Assembly: GCA_051382305.1 (NCBI GenBank)
Contig: JBBCAV010000298.1
Span: 1-41,541 of the forward strand
Length of the DNA: 41,541 bases
Direction of reading: 5' to 3'
DNA from: Bdellovibrionota bacterium FG-2
Lineage (GTDB): Bacteria; Bdellovibrionota; UBA1018
Program-made: the position numbers and the translations under genes
Shown: positions 4,474-40,067 of the stretch, one piece after another
Position numbering within the stretch: position 1 is the first letter of the stretch
How the letters are laid out: each line of letters begins with the position of its first letter
The notes under the pieces: model-generated
What the model was told of the DNA's origin: nothing
What the model saw: the letters and a program-made list of their open reading frames with translations, nothing else
Databases searched by the model: none

Positions 4474-7400
4474 CTAGTGAACGTCGGCCTTTGCACCCTT
4501 ATCATCTTCGATCAGCTCAACGTTCAAAGCCAAACTTTGAAGTTCTTTGACCAAGACGTTAAAGGATTCTGGAAGACCTGGCTCCAACAACTGCTCACCC
4601 TTCACAATCGCTTCGTACATGCGATTACGGCCAGTCACATCGTCAGATTTCACCGTGAGGAACTCTTGCAGCGCATACGCTGCACCATAAGCCTCGAGTG
4701 CCCAAACTTCCATCTCTCCCAAACGTTGACCCCCAAACTGCGCCTTACCACCCAACGGCTGCTGAGTCACAAGACTATAGGGACCAATGCTTCGCGCGTG
4801 GATCTTTTCCTCAACGAGATGATGCAATTTCAACATGTACATCACGCCGATCGTGACTTCTTCAGCAAACGGATCACCCGTCACCCCATCGAACAAGGTC
4901 GTCTGACCCCGAACAGGCAACTGAGCCACGGTAAGCATTTTCTCGATATCCTTTTCAGACGCCCCGTCAAAAACAGGGGTTGAAATATGAATACCTTTCC
5001 TCAAATGCCAAGCCATCTTCTTCACATCATCGTCTGATGCCTTATCAAGATATTTATCCACTTCAGGATTTGAATAAGTATCCTTGAGGATCTTGCGAAG
5101 CTTCTCGCCATTGAAGTTTTCCATATAGGAATTAACCCGCTCGCCGATTCCGTGAGCAGCCCAACCCAAGGTCACTTCAAGCAACTGCCCGATATTCATT
5201 CGCGAAGGAACGCCAAGTGGATTCAAAACCATGTCCACCGATGATCCATTTGCCATGAAAGGCATGTCTTCCATAGGAAGGATACGGCTGACCACACCCT
5301 TGTTCCCATGTCGACCGGCCATCTTATCGCCAACCTGCAAACGACGCTTGATCGCAATCTGAACCTTGACCATCTTGATCACGCCCGGAGCCAACTCATC
5401 GCCACGCTTCAACTTATCGGTCTTGTCCTTGAAGATATAGCGAACCGCTTCGATTTTCTCCTTGGCGGTTTTCATGACGGTTGTCACTTCTTGCTCAAGC
5501 TCATCCTTCACAGGAATAAAACCCAGCAACTCGAATGGAATCTGAGACAGCGTATCGCGATCCAGTTTTTGAGCCTTCTTCAATAGCTCCTCAGAGCCAT
5601 CTTCAGAAAGCAACTTGCCCGTCGTTGATGCGCCCTCCAGAACCTTAGAAATCTTATTGAAAGCAGACTGCCGAATCGCATCGACTTCAATCTTCTCATC
5701 GCGACGAATGGTAGCAATATGTTCTTCGAGAATTGCAGTGGTTCTCTCATCAGGCTCAGTCCCTTCACGGGCAAAAATCTGCGCATTGATGACAATCCCT
5801 TGAACGCCGGACGGCACACGAAGAGAGGTGTCACGAACATCGCCCGCCTTTTCACCAAAAATAGCGCGCAGGAGTTTCTCCTCAGGAGAAAGCTGAGTTT
5901 CACCTTTCGGAGTCACCTTCCCCACAAGGATATCGCCCGGCTTCACTTCGGCGCCAATGCGAATAATTCCGCTGCTATCCAGATCCTTCAACGCCTCTTC
6001 GCCCACATTCGGAATATCGCGAGTGACATCTTCTTTTCCAAGTTTCGTATCACGCGCGACACACTCAAACTCTTCGATATGAATCGAAGTAAAGGTATCT
6101 TCTTTAATGATGCGTTCAGAAATCAAAATCGAGTCTTCGAAATTATAACCACCCCACGGCATAAACGCGATGAGGATGTTTTGTCCCAAAGCCAACTCGC
6201 CTGCATCCGTTCCCGGTCCATCAGCCAAGACGTCGCCCGCCTTAACCTTGTCACCCATATGCACAACGGGTCTTTGGGTCATACACGTATTCTGATTAGA
6301 ACGCTGATACTTCGTGAGATTGTAAATATCGACATCTGATCCAACTTCGTCGGACTTAAGAGCCGCACGCCTCACGACGATCTTCGTTCCATCGACCATG
6401 ACGACTTCGCCATCATATTTCGAAAGAATGATTTGTCCCGAGTCACGCGCTACAATACGCTCAATCCCTGTGCCCACAAAGGGCGCAGAAGTCCGAATCA
6501 ACGGTACTGCCTGGCGCATCATGTTCGAACCCATCAACGCACGGTTAGCATCGTCATGCTCAAGGAAGGGAATCAAAGACGCCGCAATCGAAACCAATTG
6601 GTTCGGCGAAACATCCATCAGCTCCACTTCATCCGGATTAACGAGTGCAAAATCCCCTTTTCGACGAGCAGAAACAAGATCTGAACCAAGCTTCCCAGCC
6701 TTGAGAGACTCCGGTGTCACCTGAGCGATAACCTTATTTTCTTCTTCGGTCGCCGTAAAGAACTTAAGATCTGAAATGATCTTGCGACCCTGTACTACGT
6801 GGTAGGGCGTTTCAATGAAACCGAAGTCATTCACACGCGCATAGGTTGACAAGCTGGCAATCAAACCAATGTTTGGACCTTCGGGAGTTTCAATCGGGCA
6901 AATACGACCGTAGTGGGTATTATGAACGTCGCGGACCTCGAAGCCAGCGCGCTCACGAGTCAAACCACCAGGTCCAAGAGCCGAAAGGCGACGTTTGTGT
7001 GTCACTTCAGACAAAGGATTGGTTTGATCCATGAACTGAGAAAGCTGGCTCGATCCAAAAAACTCTTTCACGACCGCAGCCACAGGCTTCTGATTAATTA
7101 GATCATGGGGCATGAGAGTTTCAACTTCTTGAATACTCATGCGTTCCTTAATCGCCCGTTCCATGCGAACCAAGCCAATACGATATTGATTTTCGATCAA
7201 CTCACCGACCGCGCGAACACGTCGATTTCCAAGGTGATCGATATCATCAATCGTTCCGCGCCCATTATTTAGCTCACAAAGGTAGAACATCGTTGCGAGG
7301 ATGTCCTCCTTCATAAGAATCTGGGTCTCTTGAGGAACACCATTTTCCGGGAACTTGTAATTCAATTTCAATCGCCCGACCTTAGAAAGATCATAACGAT

Positions 7401-12075: not shown

Positions 12076-12151
12076 TGGCAGGGCAGGAGGGACTCGAACC
12101 CACAACCTACGGATTTGGAATCCGCCGCTCTACCATTAGAGCTACTGCCCT
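12076..12151 (-). tRNA. tRNA-Trp(CCA)
   Basis: AGGGCAG/CTGCCCT acceptor, anticodon loop TTCCAAA, GTTCGAGT T-loop, encoded CCA; canonical position before secE. Confidence 0.97.
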
Positions 12152-12161
12152 AACAATGAAA

Positions 12162-12311
12162 CTATTTGCCCTCGCGATGAACCGTATGCTTGCGACACGC
12201 CCGACAGAATTTCTTGAATTCGAGCTTATCGGTCGTTTTCTGCTTATTCTTCGTCGTGGAATAATTTTTACGTTTACAATCTGTACAGTCAAGACTCACA
12301 ATTACACGCAT
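12162..12311 (-). CDS. rpmG: 50S ribosomal protein L33 (Zn-ribbon, C+ form); missing from ORF track
   Basis: Hand translation: MRVIVSLDCTDCKRKNYSTTKNKQKTTDKLEFKKFCRACRKHTVHREGK* (49 aa, two CxxC); SD GAGG. Confidence 0.97.
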   Translation of the reverse strand: MRVIVSLDCTDCKRKNYSTTKNKQKTTDKLEFKKFCRACRKHTVHREGK

Positions 12312-12402
12312 GGTACTACCTCAGTATCCAGCTCCGTTCCAAACGGGGAGGATGACCGAAGCCACCCCCCCCTTTTTTCTCCGGAAACCAGAATTAGGAT
12401 CG

Positions 12403-13593
12403 TTAATCTACGATCTCGGAAACAACGCCTGAACCCACAGTTCTGCCACCTTCACGGATAGCGAAACGTAGTTCTTTTTCCATAGCAATCGGGGTGATCA
12501 GCTCAACTTCAACCGCAACGTTGTCACCAGGCATCACCATCTCAACGCTTGCAGGAAGCGTCACGACGCCTGTCACGTCTGTCGTACGGAAATAAAACTG
12601 AGGACGATAGCCATTGAAGAACGGAGTATGACGTCCGCCTTCTTCTTTGGTCAGAATGTAGGCTTGACCTTTGAACTTCTTATGCGGAGTGATCGTGCCC
12701 GGATGAGCAAGCACTTGACCGCGCTCAACCTCTTCTTTTTTCGTTCCACGAAGAAGTGCACCGATGTTGTCGCCTGCCTCACCCTGATCGAGAAGCTTAC
12801 GGAACATTTCAACGCCAGTAACAACGGTCTTCGTTGTCGGACGCAGACCGATGATTTCTACTTCTTCGCCGATTTTAATGATCCCACGCTCAACTCGACC
12901 CGTAACAACAGTTCCACGACCAGAGATCGAGAAAACGTCTTCAACAGGCATCAAAAATGGCTTATCTTTTTCGCGTTTTGGCTGTGGAATGTAGTTGTCG
13001 CAAGCATCCATGAGTTTCATGATAGAGCCTTCACCCATATCACTTAGATCACCTTCGCCGGCTTTCAAGGCTGACCCGCGAATGACCGGAATCTTATCGC
13101 CAGGGAAATTGTAGGAGGTCAAAAGCTCACGAACTTCCATTTCAACGAGATCAAGAAGTTCTGAATCATCAACCATGTCACACTTGTTCATATAGACAAC
13201 AATCGCAGGAACACCGACCTGACGAGCGAGCAAGATATGCTCACGAGTCTGCGGCATCGGACCGTCAGCAGCAGAAACAACGACAATTGCGCCGTCCATC
13301 TGAGCAGCGCCGGTGATCATGTTTTTAACATAGTCAGCATGGCCTGGGCAGTCAACGTGTGCATAGTGGCGATTTGCAGTCTGATATTCAACGTGCGTGG
13401 TATTAATCGTGATACCGCGCTCTTTTTCTTCAGGCGCATTATCGATTTGGTCGTAAGCACGCGCTGTCGCCCAACCTTTTTTCGCTAACACCGTCGTAAT
13501 TGCCGCTGTTAACGTGGTCTTCCCATGGTCGACGTGACCAATAGTCCCAATGTTACAGTGGGGCTTGTTTCTTTCAAATTTCTCTTTTGACAT
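12403..13593 (-). CDS. tuf: Elongation factor Tu
   Basis: [17 protein letters not shown]. True start is MSKEKF at 13593 (396 aa); the track's longer ORF begins inside the upstream tRNA. Confidence 0.99.
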
Positions 13594-13658
13594 ACCCTTC
13601 TTGCCTCCGAAATGTTTGGGTAGGTTTTCCCGGAACCTACAACCGGTTTTTTCAAAAC

Positions 13659-13735
13659 TGGAGCTCTTGATGGGATTTGAACCCATGACCTCTCCCTTAC
13701 CAAGGGAGTGCTCTGGCCAACTGAGCTACAAGAGC
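13659..13735 (-). tRNA. tRNA-Thr(GGT)
   Basis: GCTCTTG/CAAGAGC acceptor, anticodon loop TTGGTAA, encoded CCA. Confidence 0.97.
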
Positions 13736-13865
13736 GTACATCACCCTATGAGCAAAATTTCAAAAAGTTCTGGAGCAAGGTGTTTACACAGTTTCTCACC
13801 AATTTTCAGCTTTTTTTTGAACTTTTTCTCTTTTGCGAAATCTACAGCCATTTTTGGCTGAAATT

Positions 13866-13942
13866 TGGAGCGGGAGACGGGATTCGAACCCGCGACCCTC
13901 AGCTTGGAAGGCTGATGCTCTAGCCAACTGAGCTACTCCCGC
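13866..13942 (-). tRNA. tRNA-Gly(TCC)
   Basis: GCGGGAG/CTCCCGC acceptor, anticodon loop CTTCCAA, encoded CCA. Confidence 0.97.
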
Positions 13943-13961
13943 CCAAAACACAGTCTAGAAG

Positions 13962-14047
13962 TGGTGGAGAGAGAAGGAATCGAACCTTCGAAGGCATACG
14001 CCGCCAGATTTACAGTCTGGTCCCTTTGGCCGCTTGGGTATCTCTCC
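13962..14047 (-). tRNA. tRNA-Tyr(GTA)
   Basis: GGAGAGA/TCTCTCC acceptor, anticodon loop CTGTAAA, long variable arm, encoded CCA. Confidence 0.97.
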
Positions 14048-14125
14048 ATCAAATTTTCAACTGCGAAATAAATTTCGCTTTGCAAGCTGGTGTACGGCTT
14101 TTGGCTGCAATCCTCTTGCGTAAAA

Positions 14126-14201
14126 TGGAGCTGGAGAAGGGATTCGAACCCGCGACCTGCGGTTTACAAAACCGCTGCTCTACCAACTGAGCTACTCCAG
14201 C
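14126..14201 (-). tRNA. tRNA-Thr(TGT)
   Basis: GCTGGAG/CTCCAGC acceptor, anticodon loop TTTGTAA, encoded CCA; first gene of the canonical Thr-Tyr-Gly-Thr-tuf operon. Confidence 0.97.
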
Positions 14202-37140: not shown

Positions 37141-37611
37141 ATGAAAATCGATAAATCAGTCCTTACGTGCCTTCTTGCGCTTGGAACTCTAGGCCCCACT
37201 TCCCTAGCTTTTGCAACGGCACCCAAGGAGAGCTGCAAGCTCGAAACGACCCTCAAGATCGAAAGATCTTTGATTGAGTCGCCTGATCAAACCCTTTTTG
37301 TGGAGGTGACCTTTCGATTTCACGCCGAAACACCGTATGCGCGAATCATCGAAAAAAAGCTACTAACCATTGAGGCAGCGGGGCCCTCAAATCCTTCGGA
37401 AGCTTCTTTCGCGGCTCTCGCCGTGGATGCGCAGATCAGCTCTGTTCTTTACGAACGCACTCTTCAAGACGTTTTAGTCTCTGTTTTTCTCGATCCAAAC
37501 ACGCGAACAGGTTTTCCCATCGCGGTTGAGAGGTTCTTGCCTGAACGTGTTGAGCAAGGCGAAACATCCAAAGAGGGAATTGCCCTCGTATGTACGCTGT
37601 GGGCGAGTTGA
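37141..37611 (+). CDS. Secreted hypothetical protein
   Basis: Signal peptide ending AFA; 156 aa; co-oriented 26 bp after the previous gene. Confidence 0.7.
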   Translation: MKIDKSVLTCLLALGTLGPTSLAFATAPKESCKLETTLKIERSLIESPDQTLFVEVTFRFHAETPYARIIEKKLLTIEAAGPSNPSEASFAALAVDAQISSVLYERTLQDVLVSVFLDPNTRTGFPIAVERFLPERVEQGETSKEGIALVCTLWAS

Positions 37612-37645
37612 GCGCGTTTTGTTAAGTTGGTTTCGATTCTTGACA

Positions 37646-38060
37646 CCAGAACTCCAATTGAACCCACCGAGCAGATCGTTGCTTTTGGAGCCTGCCAAAT
37701 TTTGAGTTTTCGCCCATCCGGAAACATTAACCAACTGAACTGATTGAGTTTATTGATTACCGCATCTAAACTTGTCGACTGCGCCGTATTATCAAAGCGC
37801 TCAAGCTCTATTTCGACACTATGAGCGGAGGTGCGAATTCGTCCGGGCTGTTTCAGCACATGACGAATCAGGGAAAGGGTCTCATCCTTTTTCGCGTGGA
37901 CTTCAACAAACATCTGCTGCAACCACTTCTCACAATTATAGTTCATGGCCTTAACAAGATTGATCAGCATCCGCCTGCGCTGTTTTGTGATGACACATTC
38001 GTCTGCGAGGTTCACTTCAATCTTTGATTCTAACTCGGATCGCTGCCGCTCAAGCGGTGG
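37646..38060 (-). mobile_element. Transposase C-terminal remnant (5'-truncated)
   Basis: Frame open from about 38060: LERQRSELESKIEVNL...RMLINLVKAMNYNCEKWL...LIRHVLKQPGRI...INKLN...FPDGRKL. Resembles C-termini of long putative transposases (from recollection); no start or SD. Confidence 0.6.
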
Positions 38061-38061
38061 T

Positions 38062-38221
38062 CATTGTTTATTGTAAGAACCGCTTCGCCGCCTTCGCAGC
38101 TCTTGAATACACCGAGCTGGTCCTTTCTCTCCCTGCCGCAGCACGCGAAAAGGTGCTTGAGAAAATCCGTCGACTCAGGCGCACGCTCACCGACGAACTT
38201 CTTGACGCCCGCCCGGCTTAA
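38062..38221 (+). pseudogene. 5'-truncated gene fragment, possibly a second transposase C-terminus
   Basis: IVYCKNRFAAFAALEYTELVLSLPAAAREKVLEKIRRLRRTLTDELLDARPA* looks protein-like but has no credible start and begins at the junction with the opposite-strand remnant. Confidence 0.4.
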
Positions 38222-38414
38222 AACAAGTCCGACTACATCACTGGGTCATTCGCCGTTTTTGAGCCACTTTTCGTGCCGCTTTTGTTAACAGCAAAATCAT
38301 AGACGGATCAAATTCCGAATTTTCAAATTCTCCTGCTATTTTAAGCTGTGTCACTGCAGACCCCCGGCCTTTAGTGCCCCCCACTGTCTGAGCCACAGAA
38401 TTTAGAGCCGCCCC

Positions 38415-38443
38415 TTGACATCCCCCAAAAACTCCTTCACGCT
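38415..38443 (+). promoter_or_regulatory. Sigma70-type promoter of the leader-peptide transcript
   Basis: Perfect TTGACA at 38415-38420, 17-nt spacer, CACGCT -10 (keeps the conserved A and T). Confidence 0.55.
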
Positions 38444-38485
38444 TATATACAAGGAGAGTTGAAAACTCTCGAAAGGAGGCCTCGA

Positions 38486-38542
38486 ATGAAAACCTTCACG
38501 CTTCCCCACCAACGTCAGCAAATCCTTTGGTGGCGTTTCTAA
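38486..38542 (+). CDS. Putative Trp-sensing leader peptide MKTFTLPHQRQQILWWRF
   Basis: Strong SD AAAGGAGG 6 nt before ATG; tandem TGG-TGG-CGT near the 3' end, as in TrpL (GWWRTS). Confidence 0.72.
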   Translation: MKTFTLPHQRQQILWWRF

Positions 38543-38624
38543 ACCCACTCACCTGTCCATATTTTTTTCCCGCCCGTCCAACACCATAAACGCTATCGCT
38601 CTTTTTTCAAGGAGGAAACCGAGC

Positions 38625-38987
38625 ATGAAATTAGCCACACTTGTATCAACCGTTCTAGTTATTTCCCTAGGAACTCTCACCGCAGCTTTTGCTATGGAGC
38701 GAGATTTCTCCAACACCGTCATCCGAATGGAAAGGGGCAATCCAACCACAACCGTATCGATCTCCGGCACCCTCTCCTGCGTTTCGCAGGAAAACGGGAC
38801 CCCGTGTGAACTTCAAGTCCGAGATTCCAAATCGGGCAAGAACTTCCGCCTCGCCAACGCTACCAACGCGATGCGCATGCATCACGACGGAATCAATAAC
38901 GTCGTCATTGAGGGCGTCATTGCTTCAACTGAGCAGACGGCGAATTCTTTAAACACACTTGAAATCAAAAAAATCGATCGTCTCTAG
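38625..38987 (+). CDS. Small secreted hypothetical protein (possible OB-fold, one Cys pair)
   Basis: SD AAGGAGG; signal peptide ending AFA; 120 aa; no Trp. Confidence 0.85.
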   Translation: MKLATLVSTVLVISLGTLTAAFAMERDFSNTVIRMERGNPTTTVSISGTLSCVSQENGTPCELQVRDSKSGKNFRLANATNAMRMHHDGINNVVIEGVIASTEQTANSLNTLEIKKIDRL

Positions 38988-39041
38988 CTCTAATGCATTT
39001 GGCAGTAGCCTCCAGGGTGAAATCCAAGTAATCCTGGAGGC

Positions 39042-39266
39042 ATGCTAAATTTCGACAAAGAAAAATATCTGCAGATCGCAATAACTCAAGGGCCCCACGT
39101 GGCGCTCACAGAACTCCATCGTGAACAAAATCTTTGGGAAATAGACATGTTTGAGGGACCCAAGGGTTATCAACCCGAGAGAGTGTCTGAACTCGAAGAA
39201 GTTCGCAAATTCTCTCGCGAACTATGGGAAATAGCGCTCCGAAGTGACGGGGAAAGTCCTCAATGA
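39042..39266 (+). CDS. Hypothetical protein (74 aa, acidic, helical)
   Basis: SD GGAGG; ATGA overlap with the next gene. Confidence 0.75.
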   Translation: MLNFDKEKYLQIAITQGPHVALTELHREQNLWEIDMFEGPKGYQPERVSELEEVRKFSRELWEIALRSDGESPQ

Positions 39267-39595
39267 TCAGAGTCATTTCATGTGATGGCACCTTAGCCAT
39301 CACACAAGAGGAGGCTGAAGCACGCCTTCATACTGAAGGGTACCGCGCGTTTCGCTGGCATGACGTCCCGGGTTCTGCCTATCCACGCCACATCCATGAG
39401 ACGGATGACTGTTTTTGGGTCATCACCGGCGAAGTTTTATTTACGATCGCAGACACTCAGTACAAATTCAAGGGTGGAGATCACCTCTATATCCCTGCCC
39501 GTATCCCTCACTCTTCAGAGGTCGCGTCCACAGCAGGCGCAACCTATCTCGTTGGCGAAAAGATAGGTCCCAAAAATTATTCGACACATGAATAA
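39263..39595 (+). CDS. Cupin-domain protein
   Basis: YPRHIHETD...VITGEV motif 1; GDHLYIPARIPHS motif 2. Confidence 0.9.
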   Translation: MIRVISCDGTLAITQEEAEARLHTEGYRAFRWHDVPGSAYPRHIHETDDCFWVITGEVLFTIADTQYKFKGGDHLYIPARIPHSSEVASTAGATYLVGEKIGPKNYSTHE

Positions 39596-40067
39596 ACAGA
39601 AAATTATCGAACGGCTTCTTCAAAAACTCGAAAAAGAAATTGCTGTTATCAGCGACGCCGCCCATGCTGCCCACCTCGCAGCTACGCACGAGGAGAGCAG
39701 AGCTGAAGACTCACACGACACCCGCGGAATCGAAGCCTCTTATCTGGCCGGAGCCCAAGCAAACCGCGTCGCTGAGCTCAAGAAACAAAGTCAGATGCTC
39801 AGGACACTCCCCCTGCTTGCTTTCAAACCCTCTGACCCCATCGCTTTGGGCGCCCTCGTAGAGCTGGATTTGGACGGACAGCGCTCTTTTTGCTTGTTGG
39901 TAGAAACCGGAGGAGGACTTACGGCTGTAATCGATGGGAAAACCGTTCAACTCCTCACCTTTCAGGCGCCATTGGGCGAAGCGTTATTCGGTAAACGACG
40001 GGGAGATGTTGTTGAGGTTGAGGCTCAAAAGACAGTGCGAGAATATGAAGTCGTGGGGATTCAATAG
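39588..40067 (+). CDS. GreA/GreB-family protein (atypical)
   Basis: N-terminal coiled coil [24 protein letters not shown]-terminal LGALVEL...[16 protein letters not shown]. Confidence 0.85.

Follow-up and report, generated by a model that had tools for sequence, protein, structure and literature searches.

A conserved leader open reading frame with tandem tryptophan codons lies ahead of a putatively secreted OB-fold protein gene in Bdellovibrionota

Results

A short open reading frame with tandem Trp codons precedes the gene for a 120-residue protein

The contig JBBCAV010000298.1 of Bdellovibrionota bacterium FG-2 was analyzed over its full length of 41,541 nt (the window; all coordinates are positions in this contig, forward strand). 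The subject of this work is the leader of a gene for a 120-residue protein, which contains a short upstream open reading frame (uORF) with two adjacent Trp codons, and which an original prediction from the DNA sequence had described as a TrpL-like attenuator. The source genome is distributed over 433 contigs and is 85% complete. The sole congener for comparison is an Oligoflexia metagenome-assembled genome (MAG) that is 98% complete. The leader and the gene have the following features:

38415 to 38420, + strand: TTGACA, the -35 hexamer of the leader promoter, identical in the congener
38438 to 38443, + strand: CACGCT, a putative, non-consensus -10 element 17 nt past the -35 hexamer, read from homologous leaders
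38454 to 38470, + strand: 5'-terminal stem-loop GAGAGTT/AACTCTC of 7 bp with a 3-nt loop, seen in the minimum free energy (MFE) fold and in a hairpin scan
38472 to 38479, + strand: Shine-Dalgarno (SD) sequence of the uORF, AAAGGAGG, 6 nt ahead of the ATG at 38486
38486 to 38542, + strand: leader uORF of 18 codons, MKTFTLPHQRQQILWWRF, with a TAA stop, read from the sequence and kept in the congener
38528 to 38533, + strand: tandem Trp codons TGG TGG (codons 15 and 16), 3–4 codons ahead of the stop, the proposed sensor
38543 to 38610, + strand: C-rich, G-poor, weakly structured spacer, by its composition a candidate Rho-loading (rut-like) region
38592 to 38635, + strand: predicted hairpin around the main ribosome-binding site (RBS), from folds of both genomes; its loop contains AAGGA and its stem the remainder of the SD
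38625 to 38987, + strand: gene for the 120-residue, putatively secreted small OB-fold protein, from the open reading frame (ORF) and a structure model

The original prediction had named an SD sequence, an 18-codon frame, an 82-nt spacer and a second AAGGAGG, and all four are present: the uORF stop and the main gene are separated by 82 nt (38543–38624), and the second AAGGAGG lies within TCAAGGAGGA at 38607–38616. The tandem Trp codons are followed by an Arg codon near the end of the frame, as had also been noted, and this WWR motif is kept in the congener together with the SD, the ATG and the TAA stop. The promoter, the SD and the first 7 codons of the uORF are almost identical in the two genomes, and the SD lies inside a 34-nt stretch that is fully identical. 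This SD is strong and ideally spaced from the ATG. In the folds of both leaders, the SD is predicted to pair with codons 5–7 of the uORF. The congener uORF, MKTFTLPLHRWWRR, has 14 codons and differs from the 18-codon version by an in-frame 12-nt indel. Of its 14 aligned codons, 11 specify an identical residue, and three of the eight conserved degenerate codons (Pro, Arg, Arg) have changed synonymously. The last residue is F in the source genome and R in the congener. The spacer 3' of the stop cannot be aligned with that of the congener until approximately 40 nt ahead of the main start codon. Four neighboring genes share 75–79% amino-acid identity with their congener counterparts and use the same codon at only 40–62% of positions, so synonymous sites are well diverged. 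The synonymous changes, the in-frame indel and the kept stop therefore indicate that the uORF behaves like its coding neighbors. From this comparison, it looks like a real, selected leader ORF whose conserved feature is its Trp codons.

The leader is single-copy in both genomes, and the flanks upstream of the two loci differ from each other. A search of 5.8 billion sequences for close relatives of the 120-residue protein returned the protein itself and one cluster (75% identity) and nothing else. A metagenome scan with the same protein matched 472 pattern stretches and yielded no relatives, a metagenome scan with a degenerate leader pattern gave no matches, and a single-protein scan for related loci retrieved the congener record only. 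Because these searches supplied no further close relative, the conservation of the uORF amounts to one comparison.

Of 34 homologous loci, 19 have an exact TTGACA upstream, and the homologous leaders show TAC..T or CAC..T 17–18 nt past this hexamer, instead of TATAAT. A consensus scan called no sigma-70 promoter on the + strand at the leader, which it missed because the -10 element (CACGCT) is non-consensus. The assignment of the TTGACA promoter of the original prediction rests on the near-identical block in the congener and on the recurrence of TTGACA in homologous loci. Transcription would start near 38450. A look-up of RNA runs that contain this locus returned none, and the single run listed is probably the source sample. 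The predicted 5' hairpin at 38454–38470 was likewise found, both in the MFE fold and in the scan. At the equivalent 5' site, the congener has a different, 8-bp hairpin, and similar 5' hairpins occur in other family leaders; this stem-loop may have a role such as mRNA stabilization. The promoters of the family are unusually uniform, with TTGACA, TAC..T or CAC..T, and then a GC-rich hairpin at the presumed mRNA 5' end. This uniformity suggests a shared, strong and possibly specially recognized promoter type.

Trp-ending uORFs recur in homologous leaders

Leaders were defined as the 250 nt upstream of 33 homologues (the 34th locus had just 31 nt), and ATG-initiated ORFs of 8–45 codons led by GGAGG, AGGAG or AAGGA were counted as uORFs, with criteria that were fixed after the leaders had been seen. 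Eight SD-led uORFs are present in the 33 leaders, compared with 1.1 ± 1.0 in dinucleotide-type shuffles, an approximately 7-fold excess, and with three on the antisense strands. Trp falls within the last four codons, 2–4 codons ahead of the stop, in five of these eight uORFs and in four of seven genera. The five Trp-type uORFs end in ...LWWRF, ...RWWRR, ...HLWG, ...FPWG and ...SWRG. Across 200 shuffle sets, the number of uORFs with Trp near the stop has a mean of 0.07 and a maximum of 1. In the source-genome background, Trp occurs in the last four codons of 379 of 4865 ORFs (7.8%) and of 18 of 127 AGGAGG-led ORFs (14%), and the binomial tail for four of seven genera is approximately 0.001–0.01. 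In one locus, an additional Trp-ending uORF (...SWRP) occurs at 292 nt upstream, beyond the counting window. The expectation that a WW frame would be conserved upstream of homologues was thus borne out in part: WW is found in the congener and a single Trp in three further genera, but 25 of the 33 leaders have no SD-led uORF. A protein tree of the 34 homologues, which was asked whether the Trp-type uORFs share ancestry, left 11 of its 31 forks open and has many long branches.

Tryptophan biosynthesis genes are not detected in the lineage

In the 85%-complete source genome, neither trpA nor trpC (Pfam) nor trpB (NCBIfam, above the cut-off) was found. No trpA was found in any of five relatives. 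Similarly, none of five genomes yielded trpC or a trpB above the cut-off; among these genomes are the congener (98% complete) and members of the three other genera that have Trp-type uORFs. Each of the 14 control genomes gave a score in these searches. The gene content points to a lineage that is probably Trp-auxotrophic, and, because the genomes are incomplete MAGs, this is only what we infer. The apparent auxotrophy provides, in turn, a rationale for a Trp sensor.

A C-rich spacer suggests that the uORF could act through Rho

The spacer of 68 nt that separates the uORF stop from the main SD has a composition of 38% C and 7% G. Among 200,000 windows of 68 nt drawn at random from the source genome, 0.04% attain its C–G skew of 0.68. 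The MFE fold predicts no structure for 38543–38591, and C exceeds G in 31 of 33 family leaders. Rho loads on C-rich, G-poor and unstructured RNA, and a rho gene is present in the source genome (Rho_RNA_bind, 121 bits). In composition, and in composition only, the leader thus resembles uORF-controlled Rho-dependent attenuators, which combine a C-rich, G-poor, unstructured stretch of approximately 70 nt or longer with Rho.

The arrangement is consistent with a uORF that probably couples the OB-fold gene to tryptophan supply, and not by the hairpin of a textbook trp attenuator. The specific form that is tentatively favored, at somewhat less than an even chance, is a uORF that senses charged tRNA-Trp, acts through the access of Rho, and switches expression on under Trp shortage. 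The uORF would be translated as the regulatory leader of an mRNA that starts near 38450 and encodes the secreted OB-fold protein and probably also the products of the 74-residue, cupin and GreA-like genes downstream. The two Trp codons, 3–4 codons ahead of the stop, would gauge charged tRNA-Trp. With ample Trp-tRNA, the ribosome would complete the uORF and leave at the UAA, thereby exposing the C-rich, unstructured spacer; the main RBS that follows would be sequestered in a hairpin or CsrA-type site. Rho would then load and halt transcription, which would keep expression low. With scarce Trp-tRNA, the ribosome would park at WW, on the 5' border of the spacer, and hinder the loading of Rho, remodel the local RNA, or both, and transcription and translation of the OB-fold operon would rise. 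The leader would thus have two layers: a weakly initiating CsrA-type RBS that leaves it open to Rho, and a WW-parked ribosome that lowers termination. The direction of this response is a matter of reasoning, because the spacer would be untranslated in either state, so that a parked ribosome could only reduce the access of Rho.

Several considerations weigh against this reading. The scarcity of SD-led uORFs in the family, described above, is one. In addition, the other genera have a single Trp codon, and three of the seven genera with uORFs have no Trp near the stop. The criteria for counting were set post hoc, and the genera may not be independent if they share an ancestral uORF. The WW version is present in two genomes only, and its conservation is a single comparison. 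The folds predicted for all five Trp-type leaders place the TGG codons within local GC hairpins, so that their retention could be explained by RNA pairing. A ribosome at the WW codons covers only a few bases past the stop, fewer than in TnaC. The C-rich leaders could merely reflect selection against structure. Finally, in a source genome that is 85% complete, the auxotrophy itself is deduced from genes that were not found.

The proposed control has counterparts among known leaders. In tnaC-tnaAB, SpeFL, MgtL and ToiL, as here, an untranslated spacer separates a short uORF from the structural gene, and the proposed control is whether a ribosome at the end of the uORF lets Rho act. The likeness here consists of the rut-like composition of the spacer and the presence of rho, and Rho dependence is a proposal. 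TnaC senses free Trp by nascent-peptide arrest at the stop codon, has a conserved Trp approximately 12 residues ahead of a terminal Pro, and precedes tryptophanase. In contrast, the uORF here has its Trp residues 3–4 positions from the C-terminus and does not end in Pro, and the signal is likely to be tRNA charging; no tryptophanase gene lies downstream of the OB-fold locus, and the leader is not of the TnaC type. In the anti-TRAP leader rtpLP of Bacillus subtilis, consecutive Trp codons govern a gene outside biosynthesis, and this step involves no terminator. Its very short leader ORF, like the one described here, carries consecutive Trp codons. In rtpLP, the leader stop adjoins the downstream SD, which the terminating ribosome occludes, whereas here 68 nt separate the uORF stop from the main SD. 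A third comparison is the WWW motif of YtgCR in Chlamydia trachomatis, a run of Trp codons that reports Trp supply outside a trp leader (PMC7755916). There, as proposed here, the level of downstream expression follows Trp supply in a bacterium reliant on external Trp, and stalled translation is coupled to transcription termination, again outside a trp leader (PMC7755916). In contrast to the present leader, the WWW motif is embedded in a long coding gene, and expression downstream of it falls upon starvation (PMC7755916); here, a dedicated 18-codon uORF is present and a response of the opposite sign would be expected.

A regulatory uORF need not sense tryptophan

An alternative that is unlikely, yet plausible enough to be weighed in full, is a uORF that is regulatory without sensing Trp. 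Its W(W)R-x or WG C-terminus, or the G-rich hairpin formed by the TGG codons, could impose a pause, whether fixed or peptide-dependent, or make termination slow. Another possibility is that the uORF holds ribosomes on the leader, shields it from Rho or RNases, and in this way tunes basal expression. The variety of the family uORFs, which include the Trp-free MITLHSGFSTLSSLGYRP and a Pro-rich 29-mer, is in agreement with such a role, as is the finding that the TGG codons always lie within predicted local hairpins. The three genera with a single Trp codon would, moreover, possess a weak starvation gauge. However, Trp near the stop is enriched over background, and the tandem WW and the following R are kept exactly in the congener while adjacent codons change. 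The Trp-auxotrophic context also fits sensing.

The main ribosome-binding site resembles a CsrA target

A further alternative focuses on the main RBS. The predicted hairpin at this site holds AAGGA in a 5-nt loop, and its inner stem reads UUUUC/GGAAA in the source genome and AUUUC/GGAAU in the congener, which corresponds to one compensatory pair. The sequence TCAAGGAGGA places a GGA in the loop over the SD and fits the CsrA/Rsm consensus, given as 5'-A/U CANGGANG U/A-3' in PMC6849547. This pattern, searched as [AT]CANGGANG[AT], is present at the main RBS of 20 of 34 homologues, compared with 13 of 366 GGAGG-SD genes of the source genome, and all four bases occur at its N position among the homologues. 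A csrA gene is present in the source genome (90.8 bits). In eight genomes of one genus (loci L029–L036), the leaders have no uORF and instead contain a hairpin approximately 40–60 nt upstream of the OB-fold start codon, with a constant CAGGATG loop on stems that vary (TCGTTC..GAACGA, GCTC..GAGC, ACTC..GAGT). This hairpin resembles the GGA-loop sites of CsrA-type proteins.

It is nonetheless improbable that the leader is mainly a CsrA/Rsm target, in which CsrA on the GGA-loop hairpin, and possibly on upstream GGA-rich SD-like sites, would repress translation with Rho termination to follow, and in which the SD of the uORF would be a second site. The features of the RBS listed above argue for such a role, as does the covariation of the CAGGATG-loop hairpin in the uORF-less genus, and the uORF RBS in three leaders reads ACAAGGAGGT, which also fits the consensus. 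In the source genome, however, the SD of the uORF (GAAAGGAGGC) falls outside the consensus, and the two sites are more than 100 nt apart. In addition, AAGGAGG is a common SD, with 621 copies in the source genome. The upstream SD is unlikely to be a mere protein site, because all seven of seven leaders with a strong upstream SD have an ATG 4–10 nt later that opens a short frame. Compared with CsrA and RsmA–RsmE targets, the leader shares the A/U-CANGGANG-U/A match at the main RBS, the predicted GGA loop over the SD and an encoded csrA, and differs in its upstream SD; the likeness is one of sequence and folds. Regulation by CsrA is also compatible with the favored sensing of tRNA-Trp through Rho access, in which the RBS forms one of the two layers.

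Chance and attenuation by a terminator hairpin are poor explanations

Among the SD-led ATG ORFs of 8–40 codons in the source genome, WW occurs in 5 of 673. A lone WW ORF could thus arise by chance at this background, and one congener only is at hand for comparison. Of the other four WW short ORFs in the genome, one is nested in a longer ORF and another lacks conservation. A second SD-led ORF that ends in WW and a stop (15 codons; contig C280, approximately 5650–6270) was considered as a second case and is treated as chance. It lies 12 nt ahead of an antitoxin-like gene that is followed by a RelE/ParE-like ORF. The congener yielded no counterpart of this antitoxin/toxin-like pair, and the only homologue found (63% identity) has no such short ORF upstream. 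That the uORF studied here is itself a chance frame in the 5' untranslated region, without a function of its own, is very improbable, because it is kept in the congener and belongs to a family-wide pattern. Its frame, SD, ATG, WWR and stop persist across an in-frame indel while the spacer that follows is scrambled, and uORFs in the family leaders exceed shuffles approximately 7-fold.

The elements of a TrpL-type switch were also sought. A scan for intrinsic terminators on the + strand found none between the uORF and the gene (38470–38625) and none in the congener leader; T-runs at 38562–38568 and 38602–38607 are not preceded by GC hairpins. The leader MFE is no better than that of shuffles (z of −0.55). 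No antiterminator pairing overlaps the end of the uORF, and the folds of both leaders show local hairpins only (with two sequences, covariation is not assessable). Inspection by eye and the folds revealed no long-range pairing between the uORF region and the main RBS that is common to both genomes. At the gathering threshold, Rfam 15 matched only tRNAs in the window; at E ≤ 10 it gave two chance-level eukaryotic matches in 38300–38700, and it returned nothing on five sister leaders. There are no trp genes downstream, where the genes encode the secreted OB-fold protein, the 74-residue protein, a cupin and a GreA-like protein. In most sister loci, terminators with a GC hairpin and a T-run are obvious directly after the OB-fold gene. 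The missing leader terminator is meaningful because these organisms use clear hairpin and T-run terminators elsewhere in the same loci.

In known trp leaders, adjacent Trp codons stand close to the stop of a short SD-led ORF. The uORF shares with TrpL of Enterobacteria and rhizobia an SD-led leader ORF of 14–18 codons, adjacent Trp codons 3–5 codons ahead of the stop, and the presumed sensing of charged tRNA-Trp through the position of the ribosome. It differs in the absence of terminator and antiterminator hairpins, of an Rfam match and of downstream trp genes, and in a genome that seemingly lacks trp biosynthesis. The assignment as a TrpL-like attenuator, the central claim of the original prediction, is therefore not retained beyond the short WW ORF itself. 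A literal TrpL attenuator, in which stalling at WW chooses between an antiterminator and an intrinsic terminator hairpin, is hardly tenable: the tandem Trp and Arg codons 3–4 codons ahead of the stop of an SD-led short ORF favor it, but the leader folds no better than shuffles, has no terminator and no Rfam match even at the relaxed threshold, and precedes genes that are not trp genes, in loci where true terminators are easily seen.

The gene encodes a putatively secreted protein with a predicted OB fold

As the original prediction had proposed, the leader precedes a gene (38625–38987) for a signal-peptide-like, Trp-free protein of 120 residues that has no assigned function. By eye, its N-terminus resembles a Sec signal, with a Lys, a hydrophobic run and AFA. 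The structure was predicted, as had been suggested, with AlphaFold2 (AF2). The model has a predicted local distance difference test (pLDDT) score of 75.7 overall and of 85–93 in the barrel. It contains strands at residues 43–53, 62–67, 73–77, 92–101 and 110–119 and a helix at residues 80–87. A closed barrel of five strands, with a helix placed between the third and the fourth, corresponds to the OB-fold topology. The best Foldseek match has an E value of 3.6e-3, and the matches are the OB folds of SSB, RPA, PriB, OBody and SilF. With VIA-align, the highest score is that of the NlpE C-domain (Z of 8.0; root-mean-square deviation of 3.6 for 72 aligned residues), followed by Bacteroides lipoproteins (7.6), potempins (7.1 and 6.8), SilF (6.4) and YgiW (5.2), all Z values in a range that the tool calls common. 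The barrel therefore aligns with those of envelope OB folds (the NlpE C-domain, NigD-like lipoprotein domains, potempins, SilF/CusF and YgiW). In contrast to this structural likeness, the identity to these proteins is 6–17%, there is no family-level sequence match, and two invariant Cys residues are proper to the family described here. The invariant residues of the family are G48, C52, C61, G89, V93 and G97.

No Pfam or NCBIfam family was found for the protein. DUF5818 matches 2 of 10 family members weakly (best E of 0.032), with an Atlas feature match of 0.85; otherwise, the Atlas placed the protein in unnamed clusters only, with DUF4431 and DUF5818 as weak leads. At E ≤ 1e-3, the family has 189 representatives among 1.84 billion sequences. 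The OB-fold gene occurs in 34 of 116 genomes of the order and in 27 of a 401-genome sample of the phylum, with just one carrier outside the order.

The original prediction had also suggested that the lack of Trp would allow the protein to be made during Trp starvation. This idea was rejected, as a 120-residue protein without Trp is unremarkable (P = 0.22 at the genome Trp content of 1.27%), and the 74-residue partner and the cupin each contain Trp. Among the homologues, which are kin, 22 of 34 are Trp-free, and this holds with or without a uORF.

Downstream genes and surroundings of the locus

Downstream of the OB-fold gene, the window contains the following features:

39008 to 39041, + strand: predicted 11-bp hairpin with the GGAGG SD of the following gene in its 3' arm, immediately ahead of the start codon at 39042
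39042 to 39266, + strand: gene for a 74-residue partner protein with no signal peptide, conserved downstream of the OB-fold gene across the order
39263 to 39595, + strand: cupin gene (Pfam Cupin_2, 2.2e-11)
39588 to 40067, + strand: GreA/GreB-C-terminal-like gene (Pfam GreA_GreB, 4.7e-8)

The hairpin at 39008–39041 has a predicted energy of −31 kcal/mol (z of −5.1), and its congener counterpart (z of −3.7) has the same loop. A homologue of the 74-residue protein (LHRD..FEG..GY.P..FSRELW) follows the OB-fold gene in most loci (L003, L007, L009, L022, L025, L027, L029–L033, L035, L036, L038 and L042–L044), and the protein has no Pfam, NCBIfam or usable Atlas match. Its Trp is conserved, and the unit is therefore not Trp-free. 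Outside the genus, most loci have a terminator with a GC hairpin and a T-run between the OB-fold gene and the 74-residue gene. The cupin and GreA-like genes overlap; they are syntenic only in the congener, where they occur in the same order.

Upstream of the promoter, approximately 950 bases (37464–38414) contain only overlapping ORFs without Pfam matches: one of 183 residues on the − strand and two of 65 and 74 residues on the + strand. This segment is not common to the congener, in which a gene for a 265-residue membrane-like protein ends just before the promoter, and it may be decayed or inserted. In several genera, a divergent tRNA gene lies just upstream of the TTGACA promoter of the OB-fold gene (loci L006, L009–L011, L021, L038 and L047), which is not so in the window or in the congener. 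The tRNA genes identified by Rfam in the window number six, all on the − strand, at 162–233 and 12079–14201, with five of them clustered in approximately 2.1 kb.

Discussion

Ribosome-mediated sensing of amino acids by leader peptides is textbook biology, and nearly all cases concern biosynthetic operons and rely on terminator and antiterminator hairpins. What seems to be new here, judged from sequence, is a Trp-codon leader ORF ahead of a secreted protein, without a hairpin switch and in a lineage without a detectable trp pathway. A literature search, the coverage of which excluded subscription journals, found no paper that treats leader peptides or uORFs of Oligoflexia or Bdellovibrio-like bacteria, and none on Trp-codon leaders ahead of secreted proteins. 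Everything past the anatomy and the conservation of the leader is what we infer.

Taken as a whole, the most complete version of the model would be an ancestral Trp-codon gauge of tRNA-Trp in Trp-auxotrophic Oligoflexia, which gates Rho without a terminator hairpin, is layered on a CsrA-type RBS, and, upon Trp exhaustion, induces an OB-fold protein (secreted and disulfide-bonded) along with its cytoplasmic partner. That all of these parts hold together is doubtful, although a real possibility.

If the model is true, the leader would show how auxotrophic, possibly predatory bacteria read their amino-acid supply, and it would represent a compact regulatory module of the Trp-codon, Rho type. It would also provide a handle on an uncharacterized module of an OB-fold protein and a 74-residue protein that occurs in approximately one-third of one Oligoflexia order. 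In such organisms, the leader would act as a switch from starvation to secretion, which could serve, for example, foraging or the acquisition of prey-derived nutrients.

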